DNA of 64,000 nt from an uncultured Candidatus Rokubacteria bacterium (GCA_963789955.1 CAWBMV010000034.1:32001-96000), one strand, 5' to 3'. Counted from the first letter of the stretch, positions 38,462 to 46,782 are shown. The notes: generated from the sequence alone by a model not told the origin. Translations and numbers: made by a program.

Positions 38462-41400
38462 ATGAAGCACCTGGCGGACCTGCTCGGTGAAAGTCCGGGC
38501 ATCCAGGCGATTCGTGATCAGATCGCGAGGCTCCTGACCCGGCAGCAGGATGCGCGCAGGCTGCCGCCGGTGCTCATCGAGGGCGAGACGGGGACCGGCA
38601 AGGGGCTCCTGGCCCGTGCGATTCATCGCGCGGGACCGCGACCCGACGGTCCTTTCGTCGACGTCAACTGCGCCGCAATTCCGGAAACTCTGCTCGAGGC
38701 CGAGATGTTTGGCTTCGAGAAAGGCGCGTTCACCGACGCCCGGCGCTCGAAGCCGGGCCTGCTTCAGACGGCCCATCGGGGGACGATCTTCCTCGACGAG
38801 GTCGGGCTTCTGTCCGAAGGGCTCCAGGCGAAGCTCCTCAAGGTACTCGAGGAGCGGAGCGTGCGCCGGCTCGGCAGCACGCGCGACGAGCCGATCGACG
38901 TCTGGATCCTCACCGCGACGAACGAGAATCTGAAGTCGGCGATCCAGGGGCGCCGCTTCCGGGAGGACCTCTACCACCGTCTCGCCGTGCTGACGCTCTC
39001 GCTGCCGCCGCTCCGCGAGCGCGGCGACGACATCCTCATGCTCGCCGAGCACTATCTCGGTCGAGCCTGCAACGACTACGGCGTGTCGGCGAAGACCCTG
39101 GCCGCCGACGCGCGGGCGGCGCTGCGCGCGTACCCGTGGCCGGGCAACGTCCGCGAGGTCGCCAACCTGATGGAGCGAGTCGCGCTGCTCTCGTCGGATC
39201 CGACCGTGACCGCGGACGCGCTCGGGCTGACGGCGGTCGCGCCGACGAAGGCTGCCGCCGCGGTCACGACACCAGCGGGATCGCCGAGCTCGCTCGACGA
39301 CGCGGTTCGCGACCGGGTGTCCGATGTGCTGAGTCAGACCGGCTGGAACATCTCGCGTACCGCGGCGCTGCTCGGAATCTCGCGAAACACCCTGAGGGCT
39401 CGCATCGACAAGTATGGGCTCCGCGTGGGCGAGGCACCGGCGCCGCCGCCACCAGCGCCGCGCCCCGAGCGGCGGCCGGCCCGCCGCGCTGAGCCGACTC
39501 AGGTCGCTCCCGATGAGGCGGCTGCTCCCGCGGTGGCTGCGCCGCCGCCCGCGCCGGCAGCGCTCGAGTGGGAGCGCCGCCGCGTCACGATGCTGCGCGC
39601 GTCGCTGCTCGCCCCGTCGGCGCCGGAAGCGCTCCTCCAGACCAATCGCGCGCTCGAGCTGTTGCTCGACAAGGTCCGCAGTTTCGGCGGCACGATCGAG
39701 GGTCGCGGACCGACCGGAATCGCCGCCGCGTTCGGCCTCGACCCGACGGAGGACGCGCCGAGCCGCGCGGCGCACGCCGCGATGGCCATCGTCAATGCCG
39801 TCACGCGCGCCCGGCAGGACGCCGGAACGGGTGCCGCCATCAAGGTCGGTGTCCATACGAGTCCGATTCTCGTCGGCCGGGGCACGGGCGTGCCCGAGCT
39901 CGATCTCGAAGGCAAGCAGGCCGCGCTGAGCGTGCTGAACACCTTGATCGGGCGCGGCGACGTCGACAGCGTGATGGTGAGCGAGGCGACGGCGCCGTTT
40001 CTCACGCGCGGATTCGAGTTGCGTGAGCTGGACGGCGAGGAGTACGGGCGCGGGCGCGTGTACACCCTCGTGGGGCGCGGGCGAATGGGCCCCGGTCAGG
40101 CCGGACGCGCCTCCACGTTCGTCGGGCGCAATCGCGAGCTCGAGCTCCTGTCGAGCCGCCTCGAGTCCGCGATGCGCGGCCGCGGGCAGATCGTCGGGAT
40201 CAGCGGCGAGGCGGGGATCGGCAAGTCGCGCTTGATCTTCGAGTTCCGCGAGAGCCTGACGGGCAAGGGGGTGACGTGTCTCGAAGGCCAGTGCCACTCG
40301 CACGGCACCGCGGTGCCCTATCTTCCGATCCTCGACCTGATCCGCGCGGCCTGCGGCATCGAAGAAGGCGACGCGCCCGGGGTCATGGCCGACAAGGCAC
40401 GCTCCACCCTCCTCGAGGCCGGCATGGACCTCCTGGAGACCGCGCCCTATGTTCTGCATCTCCTCGACATCGAACAGGACCCGGAGCGCTTTGCGGCAAT
40501 GACCCCCGACGTGACGAAGGCGCGGATCTTCGACACGCTCCGCCAGCTGACGTTGCGGAAGAGCCGGCAGGCGCCGCTGGTCATCGTGGTCGAGGACCTG
40601 CACTGGATCGACGGCACGTCCGAGGAGTACCTTGCGTCGCTCGCGGAGATTATCCAGGGAGCCCGCGTGCTCATGGTGTGCACGCACCGCGGCGGGTTCC
40701 GACCCTCCTGGATCGAGAAGTCGTATACGACGCAGGTCGCGCTCCAGCCGCTCGCCCCCGAGGAAAGCCTCCACATCGTGAGGTCGGTACTCGGCCCGGA
40801 CGAGCCGGCGGATGCCCTCTACGAGCTGATCGTGGTCAAGGCCGAAGGCAATCCGTTCTTCGTCGAAGAGCTCGCGCGGACCGTCCGCGAGCAGATCGGC
40901 GGCGCGACGCCGATGACGGTGCCCGACACGGTCGAGGAGGTCCTCGGCGGCCGTATCGATCGGCTCGCCCCTGAGGAACGGCGACTGCTCGAGGTCGCGG
41001 CGGTCGTCGGCAAGGACGTGCCGTTCGCGGTGGTCCACGCGGTGGCCGGGCTGACCGAAGACAAGGTCCGACGGATATTCGAGCGTCTCAAGAGCGCCGA
41101 ATTTCTCTACGAGACGAGCCCGGGGCCGGACACCGAGTACACGTTCAAGCACACCCTGACCCACGAGGTCGCGTACGAGCGACTCCTCCCGCAAGCGCGG
41201 CGCGCTCTGCACGCGCGGATCGTCCAGGCGATCGAACGCCTCTATGAGAATCGGCTGGTCGAACAGGTCGACCAGCTCGCCGATCATGCGCTGCGCGGCC
41301 ACGTGTGGGCCAAGGCCGTCGACTATCTGCGCCAGGCAGGGGCGCGCGCGGCGGCCCGCTCGGCGCACCGGGACGCGGTCACGCATCTCGAGCAAGCGCT

Positions 41401-42586
41401 CGTGGCGCTCGGACACTTACCCAAGGACCGCGCATGGACGGAGCAGGCGATCGACATCCGTCTGGATCTCCGGCTGGCGCTGCTCCCGATCGGCGAGCTC
41501 GAGCCGATTCTGGCGCATCTCCGGGAGGCCGAAGCCTTCGCCGACGAGCTGCAGGACCAGCACCGAATCGGCCGAGTGTCGGTCTACATGACCGGCCAGT
41601 ACTATCAGATGGGGCTGCACGAGCGCGCCATCGAGTATGGCAAGCGCACCCAGGCCATCAGCGAGTCCCTGCGCGACTTCAGTCTAGAAGTCGCGACGAA
41701 TGCGTACGTCGGACAGATCCATCTCGGACTCGGCGAGTACCGCTCGGCGACAGCGCTGTTCAGGAAGAACGTCGAAGCCATCGTGGGCGATCTGACGTAC
41801 GAGCGCTTCGGCCTGCCGCAGCTCCCTGCCGTGCATTCGCGGTACTGCCTCGTGCTGTGCTTGGCGGAGATGGGCGAGTTCGCTGAGGGCATCGTGCGCG
41901 GCCAGGAATCCATCCGGATCGCCGAGTCCATCGAGCAGCCGCTGAACCTCACCGCGGCCACCTCCGGACTTGGCAGGCTGTACTACCGCAAGGGCGACCT
42001 CGAGCGCGCCGTCCCCGTTCTCAGGCGGGCATTGGAGCTCAGCCGTACGTGGAATCTCCGGATCTGGTTCCCGCAGGTCGCGACCGCGCTCGGGTCGTGC
42101 TACTCCGCGATGGGACGGCTGACCGATGCGCTGCCCTTGCTGGAGGAAGCGGTCGGGGTTGGTGGCGCGATGCGGCTGTTGAGCGCCCAGGCGCCGGCCC
42201 TGACGGCCCTCGGCGAGGCGCACTTGCTCGCGGGCAAGCTCGCGCAGTCGTCCGAAACGGCTCAGTCCGCGCTGCTCGTGGCGCAGCAGAATGGCCGCCG
42301 CGGCCACGAGGCCTGGGCGCTGCGGCTTCTGGGCGAGCTCGCCCTGTGCCGGCCGGACGCGCCGCTTGCACGGGACCAGTTCACCCGGGCCCTCGCGCTC
42401 ACGACCGCGCTCGACATGCGACCTCTCAGCGCGCACTGCTACTTCGGACTCGGCCGCGCCCTTCGGATGGCGAACGACCACCAAGCCGCCGAACGGCACC
42501 TGGCGACGGCGGTCGATCTATTCCGCGAAATGGACATGGGCTTTTGGCTCGCCCAGGCTTCCACGGAGAAGGACAAGCGAATCTGA
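38462..42586 (+). CDS. Sigma54-dependent activator (AAA+ and Fis HTH) fused to a degenerate class III cyclase, STAND-type ATPase and TPRs
   Basis: GETGTGK, VNCAA, GAFTDA, FLDEV, FREDLYHRL, WPGNVRE, NISRTA.LLGISRNTL; RRVTML..AFG..EDAPSRA..GVHT; GEAGIGKS, EDLHWID, GNPFF, Y.FKH.L; C-terminal helical repeats. Confidence 0.85.
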   Translation: MKHLADLLGESPGIQAIRDQIARLLTRQQDARRLPPVLIEGETGTGKGLLARAIHRAGPRPDGPFVDVNCAAIPETLLEAEMFGFEKGAFTDARRSKPGLLQTAHRGTIFLDEVGLLSEGLQAKLLKVLEERSVRRLGSTRDEPIDVWILTATNENLKSAIQGRRFREDLYHRLAVLTLSLPPLRERGDDILMLAEHYLGRACNDYGVSAKTLAADARAALRAYPWPGNVREVANLMERVALLSSDPTVTADALGLTAVAPTKAAAAVTTPAGSPSSLDDAVRDRVSDVLSQTGWNISRTAALLGISRNTLRARIDKYGLRVGEAPAPPPPAPRPERRPARRAEPTQVAPDEAAAPAVAAPPPAPAALEWERRRVTMLRASLLAPSAPEALLQTNRALELLLDKVRSFGGTIEGRGPTGIAAAFGLDPTEDAPSRAAHAAMAIVNAVTRARQDAGTGAAIKVGVHTSPILVGRGTGVPELDLEGKQAALSVLNTLIGRGDVDSVMVSEATAPFLTRGFELRELDGEEYGRGRVYTLVGRGRMGPGQAGRASTFVGRNRELELLSSRLESAMRGRGQIVGISGEAGIGKSRLIFEFRESLTGKGVTCLEGQCHSHGTAVPYLPILDLIRAACGIEEGDAPGVMADKARSTLLEAGMDLLETAPYVLHLLDIEQDPERFAAMTPDVTKARIFDTLRQLTLRKSRQAPLVIVVEDLHWIDGTSEEYLASLAEIIQGARVLMVCTHRGGFRPSWIEKSYTTQVALQPLAPEESLHIVRSVLGPDEPADALYELIVVKAEGNPFFVEELARTVREQIGGATPMTVPDTVEEVLGGRIDRLAPEERRLLEVAAVVGKDVPFAVVHAVAGLTEDKVRRIFERLKSAEFLYETSPGPDTEYTFKHTLTHEVAYERLLPQARRALHARIVQAIERLYENRLVEQVDQLADHALRGHVWAKAVDYLRQAGARAAARSAHRDAVTHLEQALVALGHLPKDRAWTEQAIDIRLDLRLALLPIGELEPILAHLREAEAFADELQDQHRIGRVSVYMTGQYYQMGLHERAIEYGKRTQAISESLRDFSLEVATNAYVGQIHLGLGEYRSATALFRKNVEAIVGDLTYERFGLPQLPAVHSRYCLVLCLAEMGEFAEGIVRGQESIRIAESIEQPLNLTAATSGLGRLYYRKGDLERAVPVLRRALELSRTWNLRIWFPQVATALGSCYSAMGRLTDALPLLEEAVGVGGAMRLLSAQAPALTALGEAHLLAGKLAQSSETAQSALLVAQQNGRRGHEAWALRLLGELALCRPDAPLARDQFTRALALTTALDMRPLSAHCYFGLGRALRMANDHQAAERHLATAVDLFREMDMGFWLAQASTEKDKRI

Positions 42587-42615
42587 GCGCGTCTCGCGCG
42601 CGCTCGAGCGTCCCG

Positions 42616-42765
42616 CTACTTCGAGGGCTTGCGCACCTTCCCGCCGTATCGGCGCACGACCTTCTCCATCGCTCGCCGTAGCCTCTCGAGACCGGGCTTG
42701 CTCATCGGCCGCTTCACGTTGAAGGACACTCGGACTAGCTTGCCTCTCGGTTGAAGTCTCGGCAT
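42616..42765 (-). CDS. Small basic protein B, 49 aa (MPRLQPRGKLVRVSFNVKRPMSKPGLERLRRAMEKVVRRYGGKVRKPSK)
   Basis: Hand-translated; AGGAGG RBS; 21/49 ungapped identities with 43017..43172. Confidence 0.75.
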   Translation of the reverse strand: MPRLQPRGKLVRVSFNVKRPMSKPGLERLRRAMEKVVRRYGGKVRKPSK

Positions 42766-42767
42766 CG

Positions 42768-42956
42768 TCACGTCCTCCTGGTCTTTCGGAGGGTGGGTCG
42801 CCGGCCGGCGACAGGTTCGACGACGAAGTCCTCGAGCTCGAAGCCGTGACGCCGTGCGAGCCAGACGAGCTCGAGCCGCAGCGCCTCGGCCTCGCGCGCG
42901 TCGAGCTCGCCCTGAATCTGGTATCGCTCACGACGCTCGGTGGATTTCGTCGTCAT
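42768..42956 (-). CDS. Small protein C, 62 aa, acidic core
   Basis: GAGGT RBS; stop codon 2 nt before the start of protein B; same L-x8-RR[H/Y]G register as B. Confidence 0.65.
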   Translation of the reverse strand: MTTKSTERRERYQIQGELDAREAEALRLELVWLARRHGFELEDFVVEPVAGRRPTLRKTRRT

Positions 42957-43016
42957 CGCACTACCTCGCCGCGGCCGCCTCCCGACGGAGCATGGGAGAC
43001 GGCCGCGCACTGGGCT

Positions 43017-43172
43017 CTAACGGGTTTTCTTCTTCTTCTTGATCTTGCCACCGTGCTTCTTCACGAACTTCTCGACTTCCGCCTGCAGCTTGGCCTTTGC
43101 TTTGGCGGTCTTCGGGCGCCTGACCGAAAACGACACCCGGACCTTCTGCCCCGACGGCTTGCTGGTAGGCAT
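43017..43172 (-). CDS. Small Lys-rich protein A, 51 aa (MPTSKPSGQKVRVSFSVRRPKTAKAKAKLQAEVEKFVKKHGGKIKKKKKTR)
   Basis: Hand-translated; AAGGAG RBS; paralog of 42616..42765. Confidence 0.75.
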   Translation of the reverse strand: MPTSKPSGQKVRVSFSVRRPKTAKAKAKLQAEVEKFVKKHGGKIKKKKKTR

Positions 43173-43220
43173 TCAGCGATCTCCTTCGCATAACACATAA
43201 AATGTTCACGGCGTCCGCGG

Positions 43221-44285
43221 CTACGGCCGCGCGTCCTCGATTCCGTCGCCGAGATCGTCGGCATGAAAGATCCCCGCCAAGGTGTCGAGGTTACGGACCA
43301 TATAATAGTCCTCCGTCGCCTCATATTCGCCCCGGACATTCACGGGCCGGCCGAGCGCCAGCCGCACGTAGCTCGATGCCATGTTGTGGCGACCGACGAG
43401 GTCGTACAGGTTGGTGCTCATGCTGAAACGGCCCGCGTTGATCTCCGTCACGCACGGAACGCCGCGTGCGTCCTCCCGGACGTCGAAGCAGTAGATCCCG
43501 CACGCGCGCCGGTCCACGGCGCGCACGGCCGCCTCGCACACCGCCGCCACCCGAGGCTCGTTGACCGTCTTCGCGAGCGCCGCGACCGACGAGGTCCCCG
43601 GCTCACCGTCGAACGGGACGAGGCGCTCGAACGTTTTCGTGAGAACGAGAGTTCCCTCGTGCCACAGGCTCTGGCAGCTGAAATCGCGCCCGGGCAGATA
43701 CTCCGACAAGGTGAACTCGGCCGCGCGCACTCCGCGCATGCGTTCCCAGTACGCGATCCAGCTCCGCGCCTGCGCCGGCGTCTCCACCAGGAGGGCTCCG
43801 AGGCCCCCCTGCCCAGATCGGATCCGGCACCATATCTGTCGCGCGGGCGCCAGACGCCGGAAGAGTCGGGGAATATCGGCGAGCCGCCTCACTGCGTGCG
43901 TGACGGGCGTGGGCACACCGCGGGCCCGCAGGACCATCGCCAGCGCATACTTGTCCTGACACAGCTCGATGACCGACGTCCGCGGCAGGAACACGCGGCG
44001 TCCGAAGGCGAGTCGCGCGCGCCCGATCTGCTTGACGTCGGCGTCCGACGTCGGGATCAGCAGGTCGATCTTTTCGCGTCGAACGAGCGCCCGTAGCGCT
44101 CGAGCACGATCGCGATGCCGGCTCGGCGGGAGCAGATGCTTCGTGTCGGCGGCGGAGGCGCGCAGGGCGAAGCGATCGTCGTGGCAGCCGACGATCCTCG
44201 CCGCCGGCTCGCCGGCTCGCAAACTCCGGATCAGGTTCTCGGCCGGACCGGTTCCCGCGCCGGTCACGAGCAGGCGCGCGGTCAC
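43221..44285 (-). CDS. ATP-grasp ligase (CarB-like/PylC-like N-domain type)
   Basis: LVTGAG, IDLLIPTSD, CQDK, P.T, G.GG.G, SEYLPG, FDVRED..G...TEINAGRF. Confidence 0.85.
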   Translation of the reverse strand: MTARLLVTGAGTGPAENLIRSLRAGEPAARIVGCHDDRFALRASAADTKHLLPPSRHRDRARALRALVRREKIDLLIPTSDADVKQIGRARLAFGRRVFLPRTSVIELCQDKYALAMVLRARGVPTPVTHAVRRLADIPRLFRRLAPARQIWCRIRSGQGGLGALLVETPAQARSWIAYWERMRGVRAAEFTLSEYLPGRDFSCQSLWHEGTLVLTKTFERLVPFDGEPGTSSVAALAKTVNEPRVAAVCEAAVRAVDRRACGIYCFDVREDARGVPCVTEINAGRFSMSTNLYDLVGRHNMASSYVRLALGRPVNVRGEYEATEDYYMVRNLDTLAGIFHADDLGDGIEDARP

Positions 44286-45664
44286 GAGCGTCCTGGCCGG
44301 GGCGAGATTCCGCGCCGGCGGAACGCGGCGAGGATGATCGCCCCATAGCGGCCGCCGAGGACGCGATCGGCGGCGATCATGTTCGCGACGACGCTAGAGT
44401 AAGGGAGACGCTCGTTGCCGCGCGGGCGGTCTCGGCCGGGAAAGTCGTCGACGGAAGTCCGCGCCCACGTCTTCGCGAGGAGACGACCGAAATCGTCGCG
44501 CGCGTCGAGCAGGGCCAGCCGGAATTCCTCCGGGGCCTTCGCGTAGTGGACGGCGAAGCTCCGGCGGAGCTGCCGGAATCGGCGATGGGTCACGGCCGGC
44601 GAGGCTCGATCGATGGCGATCGCGATGGCGCTCTTCGATTCCCTGGCCAATCCGGCCGGAATCGCGCCGCGCCGCACCAGGTACTGCTCGTAGATCTCGA
44701 CGAGGACGTCGAACGCGCCGCCGGTGAAGAGCTTGGAGAACGCGTGCGTGTCGTATTTCGCCTCGGCCGTTGCGACCGATGGCGACCAGATCGTGTCGGA
44801 GTTGAACGCGCTCCGGATCTGGGCACCGCGGCTCGCCTCTCCGAACCGCGAGAGCATGTTTCGTGAGAAGAGACGTCCGCGCGTGTTCGCGAGGAGGCGT
44901 CCGACGACGTGGTCGAAGTGCAGGCACGCGATCAACGCCACGAGGTCGGCGGCGCCTTCCTCGTGGGCGCGATACTCCAGCGTCTTCTTCGAGGCGGTCG
45001 GGTTACCGATGATGGATTTGAGGATCAGGTGTCCCGTCTCGTGCGCGACGACGTCGAAGTTCTCGCACAACCACGCCGGAGCGCTGCGCCGCCGGCCGCG
45101 GCGTCTCGGAAGGGAATAGCCGAACTCGAGAAAGCCCTCACCCGACCACGCGTTGTCGGTCTCGGCGCGCGGAATGAGCTCGAGGTGTCGGTGCTCGCGA
45201 TCTCGGAAGAACCAGACGATCCGGTGGCCGAGGTAGTGCTCCCAGATCTCGAGCACGCACCGGACGGTCGCGAACGCGTTGGCGGCCGAGAACGCCCGCG
45301 TGCCCACTCTGACGTGATCGAAGTGCCCGCGATGGGCCTTGACCGGCGGGTGACGCGGGTCTCCGGGCGGATAGGGCGGACGCCAGCGCGGATCGCCGAC
45401 GGCTGAATCCGAGTAGGGCAGCTTCCATTTGTACGGGCGGCGCCCATTGGTGTCGATCACGCGGATTCTCGAGTCCGACGGTCCTGGACCGATGGTACCC
45501 GGGCGCGAGGCGACGTGGACGGTCAGCGGCGCGGCGAAGCCCTCGACGCTGCTTGCCTGCTGATAGATTCGAAAACGGGTGCCCCGCGGATCGAAGCGGA
45601 ATCGAGCCGAGGGCTCCCCGTGTGGGCGTACCGAGCCTCGTCGAGACGATGATCGTCGTGCCAT
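44282..45664 (-). CDS. Cytosolic zinc metallopeptidase, gluzincin (M4/M36-like)
   Basis: DNAWSG...LEFGY, DVVAHETGH, downstream HEEGAAD, and DTH; no signal peptide; stop overlaps the ATP-grasp start. Confidence 0.75.
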   Translation of the reverse strand: MARRSSSRRGSVRPHGEPSARFRFDPRGTRFRIYQQASSVEGFAAPLTVHVASRPGTIGPGPSDSRIRVIDTNGRRPYKWKLPYSDSAVGDPRWRPPYPPGDPRHPPVKAHRGHFDHVRVGTRAFSAANAFATVRCVLEIWEHYLGHRIVWFFRDREHRHLELIPRAETDNAWSGEGFLEFGYSLPRRRGRRRSAPAWLCENFDVVAHETGHLILKSIIGNPTASKKTLEYRAHEEGAADLVALIACLHFDHVVGRLLANTRGRLFSRNMLSRFGEASRGAQIRSAFNSDTIWSPSVATAEAKYDTHAFSKLFTGGAFDVLVEIYEQYLVRRGAIPAGLARESKSAIAIAIDRASPAVTHRRFRQLRRSFAVHYAKAPEEFRLALLDARDDFGRLLAKTWARTSVDDFPGRDRPRGNERLPYSSVVANMIAADRVLGGRYGAIILAAFRRRGISPRPGRS

Positions 45665-45676
45665 GGCATCAATGCG

Positions 45677-45692
45677 GCGAACGTGGTGCCAA
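45677..45692 (-). promoter_or_regulatory. Candidate sigma54 -24/-12 promoter
   Basis: TTGGCACCACGTTCGC (TGGCAC, GG-N10-GC); predicted start near 45665, adjacent to the ATG at 45664. Confidence 0.55.
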
Positions 45693-45729: not shown

Positions 45730-46782
45730 TCATCGTGCGCGCAGCTGCAGGGCGTGACCGTCGAGATCGTGCAGCGCGATCGCCCGACGGAAACTGGGAG
45801 CCGCGTCGAAGATCGATATGATGGCCGGTCGGTCGGACATTTCGGAGGCCGCGGCCAGCTTGATCGCGGCTGCGTCGGCGTCGGTTATGACCAGGAGCGT
45901 GTGCCACCGGACGAGATCCTCGCCCATCGTGTCCCGCGGGTACGGCCGCCCATCGCGCGGCGCCAGATATTCGAGAAGCTCGAGCGCCGGGCCCTCGGCG
46001 GCGCGGAGCGTCGTGATCCTGAGCCGGGCGCCCGGCACGCTGCTCAGGCGTTCCTGCTCGGGCCCGGAGCTCTCGCTTCCGCCGGCAATCCGGAGGCCGA
46101 GCGTGTCGCGGTAGAGCTTCAGGCTCTTCTCGGTATCGCTCACGACGATCGCCGTGTGATCGATCCCGAGGAAGACGCGATCGCTCGGCCGCTGCCAGCG
46201 GGCGTCGCCCTTCCCGGCCGGAAACTGGAGAATCTCGAGCGCGTGGCCGTCCGGGTCCTTGAAGGAGAACGCGCGGATGCCGCCGGTGTTCGGATTCCAG
46301 TCCGGGAGCCGCTGGGGCTCCGGCGAGGTTTGTTCGACGCGATGGCGCCGAAGCCAGAGGTATGCCTGGTCCATGTCGTTGACGACGATCGCGATGTGCT
46401 GGAAGGACCGATCGTTGCTCTGCGCGTCGTCGGGAACAGGGCGCCCGTTGCGGCCGAGATACTCGACGAGCTCGATTCGCTCGGCGCCGAGCCGCATGGT
46501 GACGACTCGAACCCGGGCGCCGGTCACCCCGAGCAGCCGGTCGATCGACGGCCCGGACGTCTGGACGTCAGATACCGTGTCGAAGAAGAGTACGGTCGAA
46601 TAGAACGCGACCGATCGGTCCATGTCCGCAACCGGGATCGCCACGCCACCCACGGCGCTCACGGGGCTCGTGGGCGCGGGGTTGACCGTCGATCCCGCGC
46701 CCGACGGCGACATGTGAAGCGCCAGCGCCACGCCGAGCAAGGTGACCAGGAGTGCCGGCGCCAGCCGCAGTCGTGCGCTCAT
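45730..46782 (-). CDS. VOC/glyoxalase family protein with two domains, secreted
   Basis: Signal peptide; V.DMDRSVAFY, FQHIAIVV.DMD, F.DPDGH.LE, IDHTAIVVSDT..SL..Y. Confidence 0.85.
   Translation of the reverse strand: MSARLRLAPALLVTLLGVALALHMSPSGAGSTVNPAPTSPVSAVGGVAIPVADMDRSVAFYSTVLFFDTVSDVQTSGPSIDRLLGVTGARVRVVTMRLGAERIELVEYLGRNGRPVPDDAQSNDRSFQHIAIVVNDMDQAYLWLRRHRVEQTSPEPQRLPDWNPNTGGIRAFSFKDPDGHALEILQFPAGKGDARWQRPSDRVFLGIDHTAIVVSDTEKSLKLYRDTLGLRIAGGSESSGPEQERLSSVPGARLRITTLRAAEGPALELLEYLAPRDGRPYPRDTMGEDLVRWHTLLVITDADAAAIKLAAASEMSDRPAIISIFDAAPSFRRAIALHDLDGHALQLRAR

Follow-up and report, generated by a model that had tools for sequence, protein, structure and literature searches.

The stretch of DNA analysed here, 64,000 nucleotides (nt) from an uncultured soil bacterium of the Candidatus Rokubacteria (GCA_963789955.1 CAWBMV010000034.1:32001-96000), which at its full length we call the window, contains a set of five same-direction minus-strand open reading frames (ORFs) spanning 42616-45664. 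They encode a putative zinc peptidase, an ATP-grasp ligase and three mini-proteins, A, C and B, which a first-pass annotation had taken for a candidate peptide-modification system of a new kind. Our analysis indicates that these genes belong to a cassette specific to one lineage, the Methylomirabilota (Rokubacteria), and that the core of this cassette consists of the ligase, a pair of paralogous mini-proteins and a sigma-54 activator of the STAND type. The thermolysin-like peptidase, by comparison, is a swappable accessory.

Organization of the locus

The genes of the cassette and the regulator gene that faces them are the following (aa, amino acids; pI, isoelectric point).

44282-45664, minus strand: peptidase, 460 aa, with the motif HETGH...EEGAAD; accessory member of the cassette
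43221-44285, minus strand: ATP-grasp ligase, 354 aa, with the motif TEINAGRF; core enzyme of the cassette
43017-43172, minus strand: mini-protein A, 51 aa with 15 Lys, pI 11.7; A-type
42768-42956, minus strand: mini-protein C, 62 aa counted from the ATG; the ORF extends to a GTG at 43010
42616-42765, minus strand: mini-protein B, 49 aa counted from the ATG, 17 Lys+Arg, pI 12.0; second A-type copy
38462-42586, plus strand: regulator, 1374 aa, convergent with the cassette; matches in Pfam and NCBIfam

The first-pass annotation had described the five ORFs with these coordinates and motifs, together with the overlap, the ribosome-binding sites and the Lys and Arg counts, and all of this is confirmed. 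The GTG start of the ligase overlaps the peptidase stop as GTGA (4 nt), Shine-Dalgarno-like sequences lie 5-9 nt 5' of the starts of A (GAAGGAG), C (GGCGAGG) and B (AGGAGG), and the regulator gene and B end tail-to-tail. The cassette measures about 3 kb, the regulator being extra, and the G+C content of the whole window is 65-72%. No transporter appears in the operon, either in the ORF map or in the Pfam scan. Profile and homology searches of the whole window genome find a single ligase, one C and two A-type genes (A and B), all within this locus, and the named relatives of the cassette proteins come from metagenome-assembled genomes of Candidatus Rokuibacteriota/Methylomirabilota.

Recurrence of the core across the phylum

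Our phylum sample consists of 251 Methylomirabilota genomes, the window's own included; the tallies take in two unpublished genomes, G217 (ligase, C and peptidase) and G076 (ligase and C), whose omission shifts each count by at most two. The ligase is present in 94 of the 251 genomes (about 37%) and a C-type mini-protein in 91, and 90 genomes have both (tables compared by hand). Four genomes have the ligase without a C-type match (G099, G147, G210 and G222) and one has C-type without ligase (G156); the ligase of G099 sits at a contig end, and the G147 locus did show a small match in a later scan. About nine tenths of the listed C matches fall within 1.5 kb of the ligase match on the same contig, with C usually downstream. 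Related loci have two ORFs 3' of the ligase, a short basic one preceded by a strong GGAGG-type site and, after it, a short one with the C core. Among 107 fetched loci with the ligase, a C-type ORF is found in 89 and an A-type ORF in 65 (E<=1e-4), in a set that counts several genomes twice and in which at least four loci break off at the ligase, and with an A-type profile that misses divergent copies visible by eye, for example in L086.

Two A-type copies occur in only two of the fetched loci, the window and L119 (G186:C84:27500-31500), and the latter has the order peptidase, A, A, C, ligase, convergent regulator, so that the same genes are present in a different order. The cassette recurs far beyond chance. 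The first pass had seen a single minus-strand unit and had named neighbourhood analysis as a check on its recurrence. The neighbourhoods show ligase and small ORFs to be a conserved unit: the ligase is linked to the small ORFs in other genomes, and not in polysaccharide loci, and of the refuting outcomes listed in the first pass none of those that could be checked was observed. When loci are instead anchored on the peptidase, with all species allowed (80 loci), the ligase appears only in records labelled Rokuibacteriota/Methylomirabilota and in one labelled Acidobacteria.

The mini-proteins

A-type proteins have a Pro-rich N-terminal segment, a beta-alpha-beta unit, as read from the sequence, and a basic tail, and some of them end at the second strand, with no tail beyond. 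C-type proteins have a core R-I-E-I-x-G-x-L-D-x-H-x-A-E-A-L-x-L-E-I-R-R-L-A-x-R-x-G followed by a variable tail, and the pattern of each family would fit a single strand-helix-strand unit. A and B are 43% identical. A hidden Markov model (HMM) iterated from A also recruits C-type proteins, and an hhalign comparison of the A-type and C-type family alignments gives a probability of 86% (E 4.9e-6); on these two grounds we take A/B and C to be remote paralogues, in agreement with the initial claim that the three small proteins are related.

The C family is the better conserved part of the pair. Its alignment has a mean identity of 45%, D19 and E24 are invariant, and L26, L28, E29, R32 and L33 are nearly so. 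A C-type profile search of 1.84 billion proteins returned 458 representative clusters, 131 of them at E<=1e-10; the best 150 representatives are 42-157 aa long, with no fused forms among them. A separate search gave 491 clusters at 90% identity, and among the 120 listed none has a Pfam domain and the named ones are labelled Rokubacteria or Binatia. The small ORFs are thus real families that gene callers recognize, and RNA-library contigs cover them (see below). The last residue of the 150 representatives varies (A in 36, G in 27, P in 14, R in 14, S in 13, E in 12, others in the remainder). The description of C as acidic, also from the first pass, suits its acidic helix and the wider family, with pI below 7 in 90 of 150 representatives, and does not suit the C of the window itself, whose pI is 10.2. 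Three loci of one genus, L120 (G075), L122 (G073) and L123 (G074), have, besides the downstream C-type match, another one 4.6-5.8 kb upstream of the ligase, on the far side of an S8 protease of about 1000 aa.

The A family has a median pI of 12.0. Of 52 distinct A-type sequences, 30 have Pro as residue 2 (MPF in 16) and another 21 have Gly, Ser or Ala there. Under the usual rules of Met removal, this would leave a small residue, most often proline, at the mature N-terminus.

No Pfam or NCBIfam family covers A, B or C. Searched against the PDB, the C profile finds SpoIIAA (STAS) at E 0.023 with only 20 residues aligned, a faint likeness; otherwise the A and C profiles match designed beta-alpha-beta and repeat proteins, which are uninformative, and the protein-atlas neighbours of C are unnamed clusters only, with scores of at most 0.83. 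A tautomerase identity for A or C was considered and rejected: there is no Pfam match, and hhalign gives probabilities of 0.5% (A) and 0.06% (C) against a shallow tautomerase alignment of 6 sequences. In the window genome PF01361 (Tautomerase) matches only an unrelated gene, and not A, B or C; moreover the A-type Pro would stand about 10 residues before the first strand, unlike the catalytic Pro1 by which tautomerases are recognized, which is at the strand start.

Do A and C form a complex? The predicted A+C complex scores 0.33, against 0.02 for the best control, and has weak support. The mark was reached by 116 of 157 solved complexes and, among 215 mismatched pairs, by 2; with a score of 0.60 or under, only 18 of the 157 solved complexes reached it, as did both of the passing mismatches. 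The prediction runs agree in at least 84% of contacts, with a partner pLDDT of at least 62.

The ligase

ATP-grasp enzymes phosphorylate a carboxylate and then transfer its acyl group to an amine or else a hydroxyl or thiol. The AF2 model of the ligase (pLDDT 88.8) has the three-domain fold of PurD, biotin carboxylases, L-amino-acid ligases and PylC, and the sequence has the conserved Mg/ATP-site residues (E-x-N...R) that together with the fold mark the ATP-grasp superfamily; T280, N283, G285 and R286 (numbered in the ligase, at its motif TEINAGRF) are invariant in 20 ligases. Residues 1-354 align to many ATP-grasp enzymes at tied Z scores of 26-29. The VIA-align Z values are 29.3 for 2pn1, 28.7 for PurD, about 28 for biotin carboxylases, 27.9 for PylC, 27.9 for the L-amino-acid ligase 3vot and 27.0 for BacD. 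The fold thus points to an active carboxylate-amine ligase, and does not by itself name the substrate.

The only matches of the ligase in Pfam and NCBIfam are below threshold, to PylC-like_N, ATP-grasp_4 and PRK12767, the last in the N-terminal third. The ligase scores 17.5 bits against a cut-off of 143.4 for the RimK family (TIGR00768), 19.3 against 275.6 for LysX (TIGR02144) and 17.1 against 27 for PylC-like_N (PF21360), and none of the graspetide ATP-grasp models in NCBIfam matches it at E<=0.1.

The peptidase and its substitutes

The peptidase has the HExxH motif with a downstream Glu as third zinc ligand, the combination expected of M4 and M36 proteases: H208, E209, H212, E236 and D240, which make up an HExxH + E(x3)D zinc site, are invariant across 14 peptidase homologues. 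Pfam and NCBIfam each give 0 families at E<=0.1, M4 and M36 models included, and the sequence has no match in the PDB at E<=10. The top 27 Foldseek matches of the AF2 model (pLDDT 82) are all M36 or M4 proteases with the thermolysin-like two-lobe fold. The best of them has E 1.9e-6 and TM 0.50/0.57, at identities of 10-12%, and the protein-atlas neighbours are clusters named 'Peptidase M4 C-terminal domain'. We thus consider the protein, on the strength of its model, a divergent thermolysin-fold (M4/M36) zinc peptidase. It shares with thermolysin (M4) and fungalysin (M36) the zinc site and the overall fold, and differs from them in having no Pfam M4/M36 match and, as read by eye, no hydrophobic N-terminus and no evident signal peptide or propeptide, so that the peptidase of the window is putatively cytosolic.

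Outside the phylum the family is common, mostly as a gene that stands by itself in diverse surroundings, with members in Paenibacillus, Clostridium hydrogeniformans, Scytonema, Actinoplanes, Actinomycetospora, Azospirillum, Geminicoccaceae and others (loci L005, L012-L015 and L019-L047). In the four loci that were mapped the gene is alone, in unrelated contexts. The window peptidase belongs to an unnamed clade, spread over many phyla, for which there is no Pfam model.

Within the phylum sample the M4-like peptidase is found in 43 of the 251 genomes, 39 with the ligase and 4 without; in 37 of the 39 its gene lies directly upstream of the ligase, and in two (G241 and G106) it lies on another contig. 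What do the other ligase genomes have in its place? We fetched 58 loci (ligase with up to 3.5 kb on either side) from 54 of the 55 ligase genomes that have no M4-like gene, plus the unlinked ligase of G241, and scanned 150 neighbouring ORFs; G076 and G141 are not in the fetched set, and G075 is represented as L120. An S8 subtilase adjoins the ligase in 13 genomes (10 by PF00082 above cut-off, 3 by tblastn only). In 7 genomes a protein of about 300 aa with an HExxHxxGxxH-type motif stands between ligase and A; we call it metzincin-like on the motif alone, since Reprolysin models stay below cut-off. An HExxH protein fused to DinB_2 lies near the cassette in 5 genomes and an unnamed 467-aa HECGH protein in 2, and a Rce1-like protease, a gamma-glutamyltranspeptidase, a beta-lactamase-like protein and an ABC exporter are single cases; the sole ligase-adjacent ABC transporter (L141) contains no C39 peptidase domain at E<=0.05. 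In total roughly 57-59 of the 94 ligase genomes have a peptidase-like neighbour.

Some of these neighbours deserve a further remark. The metzincin-like ORFs at L114:1159-2046, L116:1109-2077, L118:1111-2028 and L166:2264-3595 encode proteins of about 300-440 aa with an HEvGHFlgLcH-type motif, and metzincin-like proteins have a signal-peptide-like or lipoprotein-like N-terminus, though the operon otherwise looks cytosolic. The fusions of an HEVGHH region to a C-terminal DinB_2 are at L099:17-943, L125:954-1949, L139:1732-2943 and L166:6409-7413, and DinB-only proteins are found upstream of the ligase in L082, L090 and L177.

The first pass had paired the peptidase with the ligase, and as a fixed partnership this is not supported. 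The small ORFs do accompany the ligase nearly everywhere; the M4-like peptidase does so in only 39 of 94 ligase genomes, its family also exists as a stand-alone gene in many phyla, and unrelated peptidases replace it in other lineages. Because unrelated peptidases have been recruited to the same core, our results argue that proteolysis is part of the function in many lineages, though not an obligatory part.

The regulator and a possible promoter

The regulator combines a sigma-54 AAA+ activator domain, a Fis-type HTH, a cyclase-like stretch, an AAA_16 (STAND) ATPase and TPR. Its Sigma54_activat domain (PF00158) scores 198.5 bits against a threshold of 20.2 and its HTH_8 41.7 against 22, and the joint presence of the AAA+ module and the Fis-type HTH identifies it as a sigma-54 enhancer-binding protein. 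Against the model of the TOMM system kinase/cyclase fusion protein (TIGR03903) it scores 292.6 bits, below the cut-off of 705.75. Residues 398-1200 align to that model, in the cyclase-like, AAA_16 and TPR part only, and the kinase part of the fusion is replaced in the regulator by the sigma-54 activator module. In 27 of the 30 loci L081-L110 the C-terminal part of the regulator is found just beyond the mini-proteins, in convergent orientation, and 51 of the 58 loci L121-L178 have a strong regulator match.

A candidate site for such an activator lies in front of the peptidase gene:

45677-45691, minus strand: sigma-54-promoter-like motif TGGCAC-N5-TCGC, TGGCACCACGTTCGC, 13 nt upstream of the peptidase ATG; uncertain

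Use of this site would give an almost leaderless mRNA. Among 41 loci scanned, it has the best score. The strict sigma-54 pattern is found upstream in only 2 of the 41, and a weighted scan gives a mean best score of 10.5 upstream versus 9.0 inside the ligase gene.

Contigs from RNA libraries

Of twenty public runs that contain some of a 3.3-kb stretch at the cassette, six are RNA libraries; contigs of four RNA libraries, from four studies, were aligned to it. In X20 (record 24) a 557-nt contig covers 42691-43247 with 1 mismatch and spans C and A completely, together with a portion of B and the 3' end of the ligase gene. Two contigs of X18 (records 17 and 18) cover 42527-42735 and 42739-42961, in B and C, with 0 mismatches. 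X16 has exact contigs inside the ligase and peptidase genes, and X15 contains a relative with about 2-4% mismatches across nearly the whole 3.3 kb. The RNA libraries that cover the cassette derive from soil and sediment. Their contigs show that the sequence is present and is bridged across the small ORFs; they do not give strand, level or ends.

Neighbouring genes

Directly upstream of the cassette, and in the same direction, lies one further gene:

45730-46782, minus strand: two-domain glyoxalase/VOC protein, 350 aa

It is kept in this position only in a few close relatives (L007, L040, L102, L103 and L108). In loci from one group of genera, the ligase has a POR/DUF6537 oxidoreductase (about 915 aa) and a Cu/Zn superoxide dismutase immediately upstream, on its own strand (L143, L145-L150, L152-L154, L158-L160 and L164), an adjacency that may reflect local synteny or a link to oxidative stress. 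Other recurrent neighbours, enoyl-CoA hydratase and CoA-transferase, look like local synteny. Among the scanned neighbours of the ligase no polysaccharide genes recur, and the neighbour scan shows no other biosynthetic genes or downstream pathway enzymes conserved beside it. PADLOC models give 0 families at E<=0.01 for the peptidase, the ligase, A, B and C. At the outset no graspetide leader or core motif, no transporter and no sugar-biosynthesis context had been recognised, and the locus had seemed to match no known system; the Pfam, NCBIfam, PADLOC and neighbour scans agree, in that no known family, defence system or polysaccharide setting fits.

Discussion

Our results partly support the interpretation from which we started, in that the link between ligase and mini-proteins is strong and the peptidase is accessory. 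How does the cassette compare with known systems? In Pseudomonas RimK adds glutamates to the tail of ribosomal protein S6 (RpsF) and a co-encoded protease, RimB, takes them off, so that two enzymes work in opposite senses at one small protein's tail (PMC11957791). The cassette likewise encodes an ATP-grasp ligase with a protease. Unlike RimK, however, its ligase falls outside the RimK family by the score given above, its protease is thermolysin-like, or S8- or metzincin-like, and not retropepsin-like, and its putative substrates are two operon-encoded mini-proteins, with no conserved Glu-rich end, in place of a ribosomal protein.

LysX and ArgX work with a dedicated amino-group carrier protein of about 55 residues, LysW, whose tail bears the ligated group. 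There too the genes for an ATP-grasp ligase and for its own small protein go together, but our ligase scores far below the LysX cut-off and no downstream pathway enzymes are conserved beside it; moreover the C-type tails are unconserved, with no conserved acidic C-terminal end, and there are two paralogous small proteins and not one. With the graspetides, which are microviridin-type peptides made by the ribosome and modified after translation (RiPPs), the cassette has in common an ATP-grasp enzyme, short, variable and sometimes multi-copy peptides, and peptidases of varying family. It differs from them in that no graspetide ATP-grasp model matches and in that its peptides look like folded mini-domains rather than a leader and a core. 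An intramolecular lactone or lactam in A is unlikely, because A, like B, has no Asp and only 2 Glu, and a graspetide core needs such donor residues (Asp/Glu) beside its acceptors (Thr/Ser/Lys). The main text of a graspetide survey (PMC8939145) contains no mention of Rokubacteria, Methylomirabil*, thermolysin, sigma-54 or PylC, although its supplements may list such ligases.

In size and fold the ligase is closest to PylC (Z 27.9, 300 residues aligned at 2.6 A) together with the PRK12767 / 2pn1 group (Z 29.3). PylC acylates the N-epsilon amine of lysine, which would suit the Lys-rich A. The identity to PylC is however only 13%, the PylC-like_N score is below its cut-off, and the Z score is tied with those of biotin carboxylases and PurD and hence unspecific; the ORF map of the window contains no pyl genes. 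The fosfazinomycin system was considered and is no parallel, since its ATP-grasp protein acts as a kinase (PMC13622209). We found no description of the cassette in the literature on ATP-grasp systems, Methylomirabilota/Rokubacteria and peptide tagging that our search covered, most subscription journals lying outside that coverage. Thus the cassette resembles ATP-grasp systems that act on ribosomal products but belongs to none of the RimK, LysX, PylC and graspetide families.

What we observe is the gene content, the co-occurrence, the homology between A and C, the fold of each enzyme with its catalytic motifs intact, and the cover by RNA-library contigs. The reading that we tentatively prefer is an ATP-grasp pathway of peptide or protein modification that acts on the mini-protein pair and is followed by proteolytic processing. 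It is the best supported because the ligase is tightly linked to two dedicated mini-proteins whatever the gene order, because peptidases have been added to the core repeatedly and because RimK-RimB-RpsF provides a precedent. For concreteness, let us suppose that the activator turns the operon on. The two mini-proteins would then pair via their common domain, A being cationic, hypervariable and sometimes duplicated, and C having a conserved acidic core. The ligase would activate a carboxylate as an acyl-phosphate and make an amide bond on the pair, and a peptidase would trim or release the product, here presumably the cytosolic thermolysin-like enzyme, and in other lineages a subtilase (S8), a metzincin-like enzyme that is secreted, or some other HExxH protein. 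A would be the likelier substrate, since it is hypervariable, cationic, strongly translated as its ribosome-binding sites suggest, and sometimes duplicated, and C the likelier presenting partner or carboxylate donor (through Asp19/Glu24 or its C-terminus). The substrate role of the mini-proteins, the identity of the atoms joined and the role of the product are inferences, and so is the Lys-isopeptide chemistry put forward in the first pass.

A number of points weigh against this pathway. The adjacency of ligase and mini-proteins is by itself no proof of a substrate relation, and the complex prediction lends the A-C pairing weak support. The fold of the ligase is nearest to small-molecule enzymes, with no preference for RimK or LysX. 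The A-type alignment has a mean identity of 26% and Met1 as its sole invariant residue, so it offers no conserved acceptor; since A has no other invariant residue and the C termini of both families are unconserved, there is no obvious fixed modification site. As for proteolysis, four of five good-quality ligase genomes examined (93-100% complete) have no M4-like homologue at E<=1e-5 and the fifth, G240, has only weak partial matches on other contigs (E 4e-10 and 5e-6), and about one third of the ligase genomes have no peptidase-like gene within 3.5 kb. The RNA-library contigs are no proof of transcription, since DNA carry-over is possible. Finally, the sigma-54 promoter is not conserved in relatives, and the target of the regulator is therefore not demonstrated.

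Could the cassette instead carry out reversible tail tagging inside the cell, in the manner of RimK and RimB? The ligase would then extend a flexible terminus of C or A by one or more amino acids, the cytosolic peptidase would remove the extension, and the cycle would tune the charge and binding of small basic proteins that bind nucleic acids or ribosomes. The precedent exists (PMC11957791), the N-terminus of the window peptidase is not hydrophobic, the operon has no transporter, both mini-protein families have variable, charged tails, and the peptidase and ligase genes overlap by 4 nt. We nevertheless regard tail tagging as unlikely: the ligase is far from the RimK and LysX cut-offs, the tail ends are unconserved, some A-type proteins have no tail past the second strand, and the signal-peptide-like N-termini of the metzincin-like partners are ill-suited to a purely cytosolic cycle.

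Alternatively the ligase may make a small molecule, such as a dipeptide of the L-amino-acid-ligase type or an N-epsilon-acyl-lysine of the PylC type, with A and C as regulatory or scaffolding subunits whose beta-alpha-beta halves would form an ACT-like ligand-binding module, and with peptidases that degrade or recycle the product. The best structural matches (2pn1, PylC, 3vot and BacD) are indeed small-molecule ligases, A has no conserved candidate acceptor residue, and the peptidase is dispensable in many genomes. This explanation we also find doubtful, since a fast-evolving, extremely basic and sometimes duplicated A would be unusual for a ligand-binding regulatory subunit, since endopeptidase families (S8, M4-like and metzincin-like) fit polypeptides better than a dipeptide, and since no other biosynthetic genes are conserved beside the ligase.

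Least credible to us is that A and C are a self-contained pair, for example a cationic nucleic-acid binder or toxin with an acidic neutraliser, or a tautomerase-like, heteromeric enzyme whose N-terminal residue is proline, which merely shares neighbourhood and regulator with the ligase: the basic A, the acidic core of C, the Pro at A-type position 2 (30 of 52), the beta-alpha-beta unit predicted from sequence in both families, such as tautomerases contain, and the weakly supported A-C pairing would fit, but C-type proteins are almost confined to ligase genomes, the gene content is retained despite shuffled order, the Pfam and hhalign comparisons with tautomerases are negative, with the Pro some 10 residues before the strand, and PADLOC gives no match.

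Returning to the modification pathway, we note one specific form of it, which we consider very improbable, in which the ligase covalently joins a carboxylate of C (the invariant Asp/Glu or the C-terminus) to a lysine of A or to its N-terminal proline. If true, the joining of A to C would be protein-protein conjugation by acyl-phosphate chemistry, to our knowledge not a known route in bacteria, and the lineage-specific peptidases would process or reverse the link.

More generally, there are few ATP-grasp ligases with ribosomal products as substrates; these are well studied, and each has opened a field: RimK the tuning of ribosomes, LysX carrier-protein metabolism, and the graspetide synthetases RiPP chemistry. 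The cassette differs from the known systems in its separate ligase clade, its two paralogous mini-proteins, its swapped peptidase partners and its giant STAND/sigma-54 sensor, and it comes from a phylum that, as far as we know, has no cultured soil representatives. As a corollary, it offers a first functional context for a widespread, unnamed clade of cytosolic thermolysin-like peptidases.

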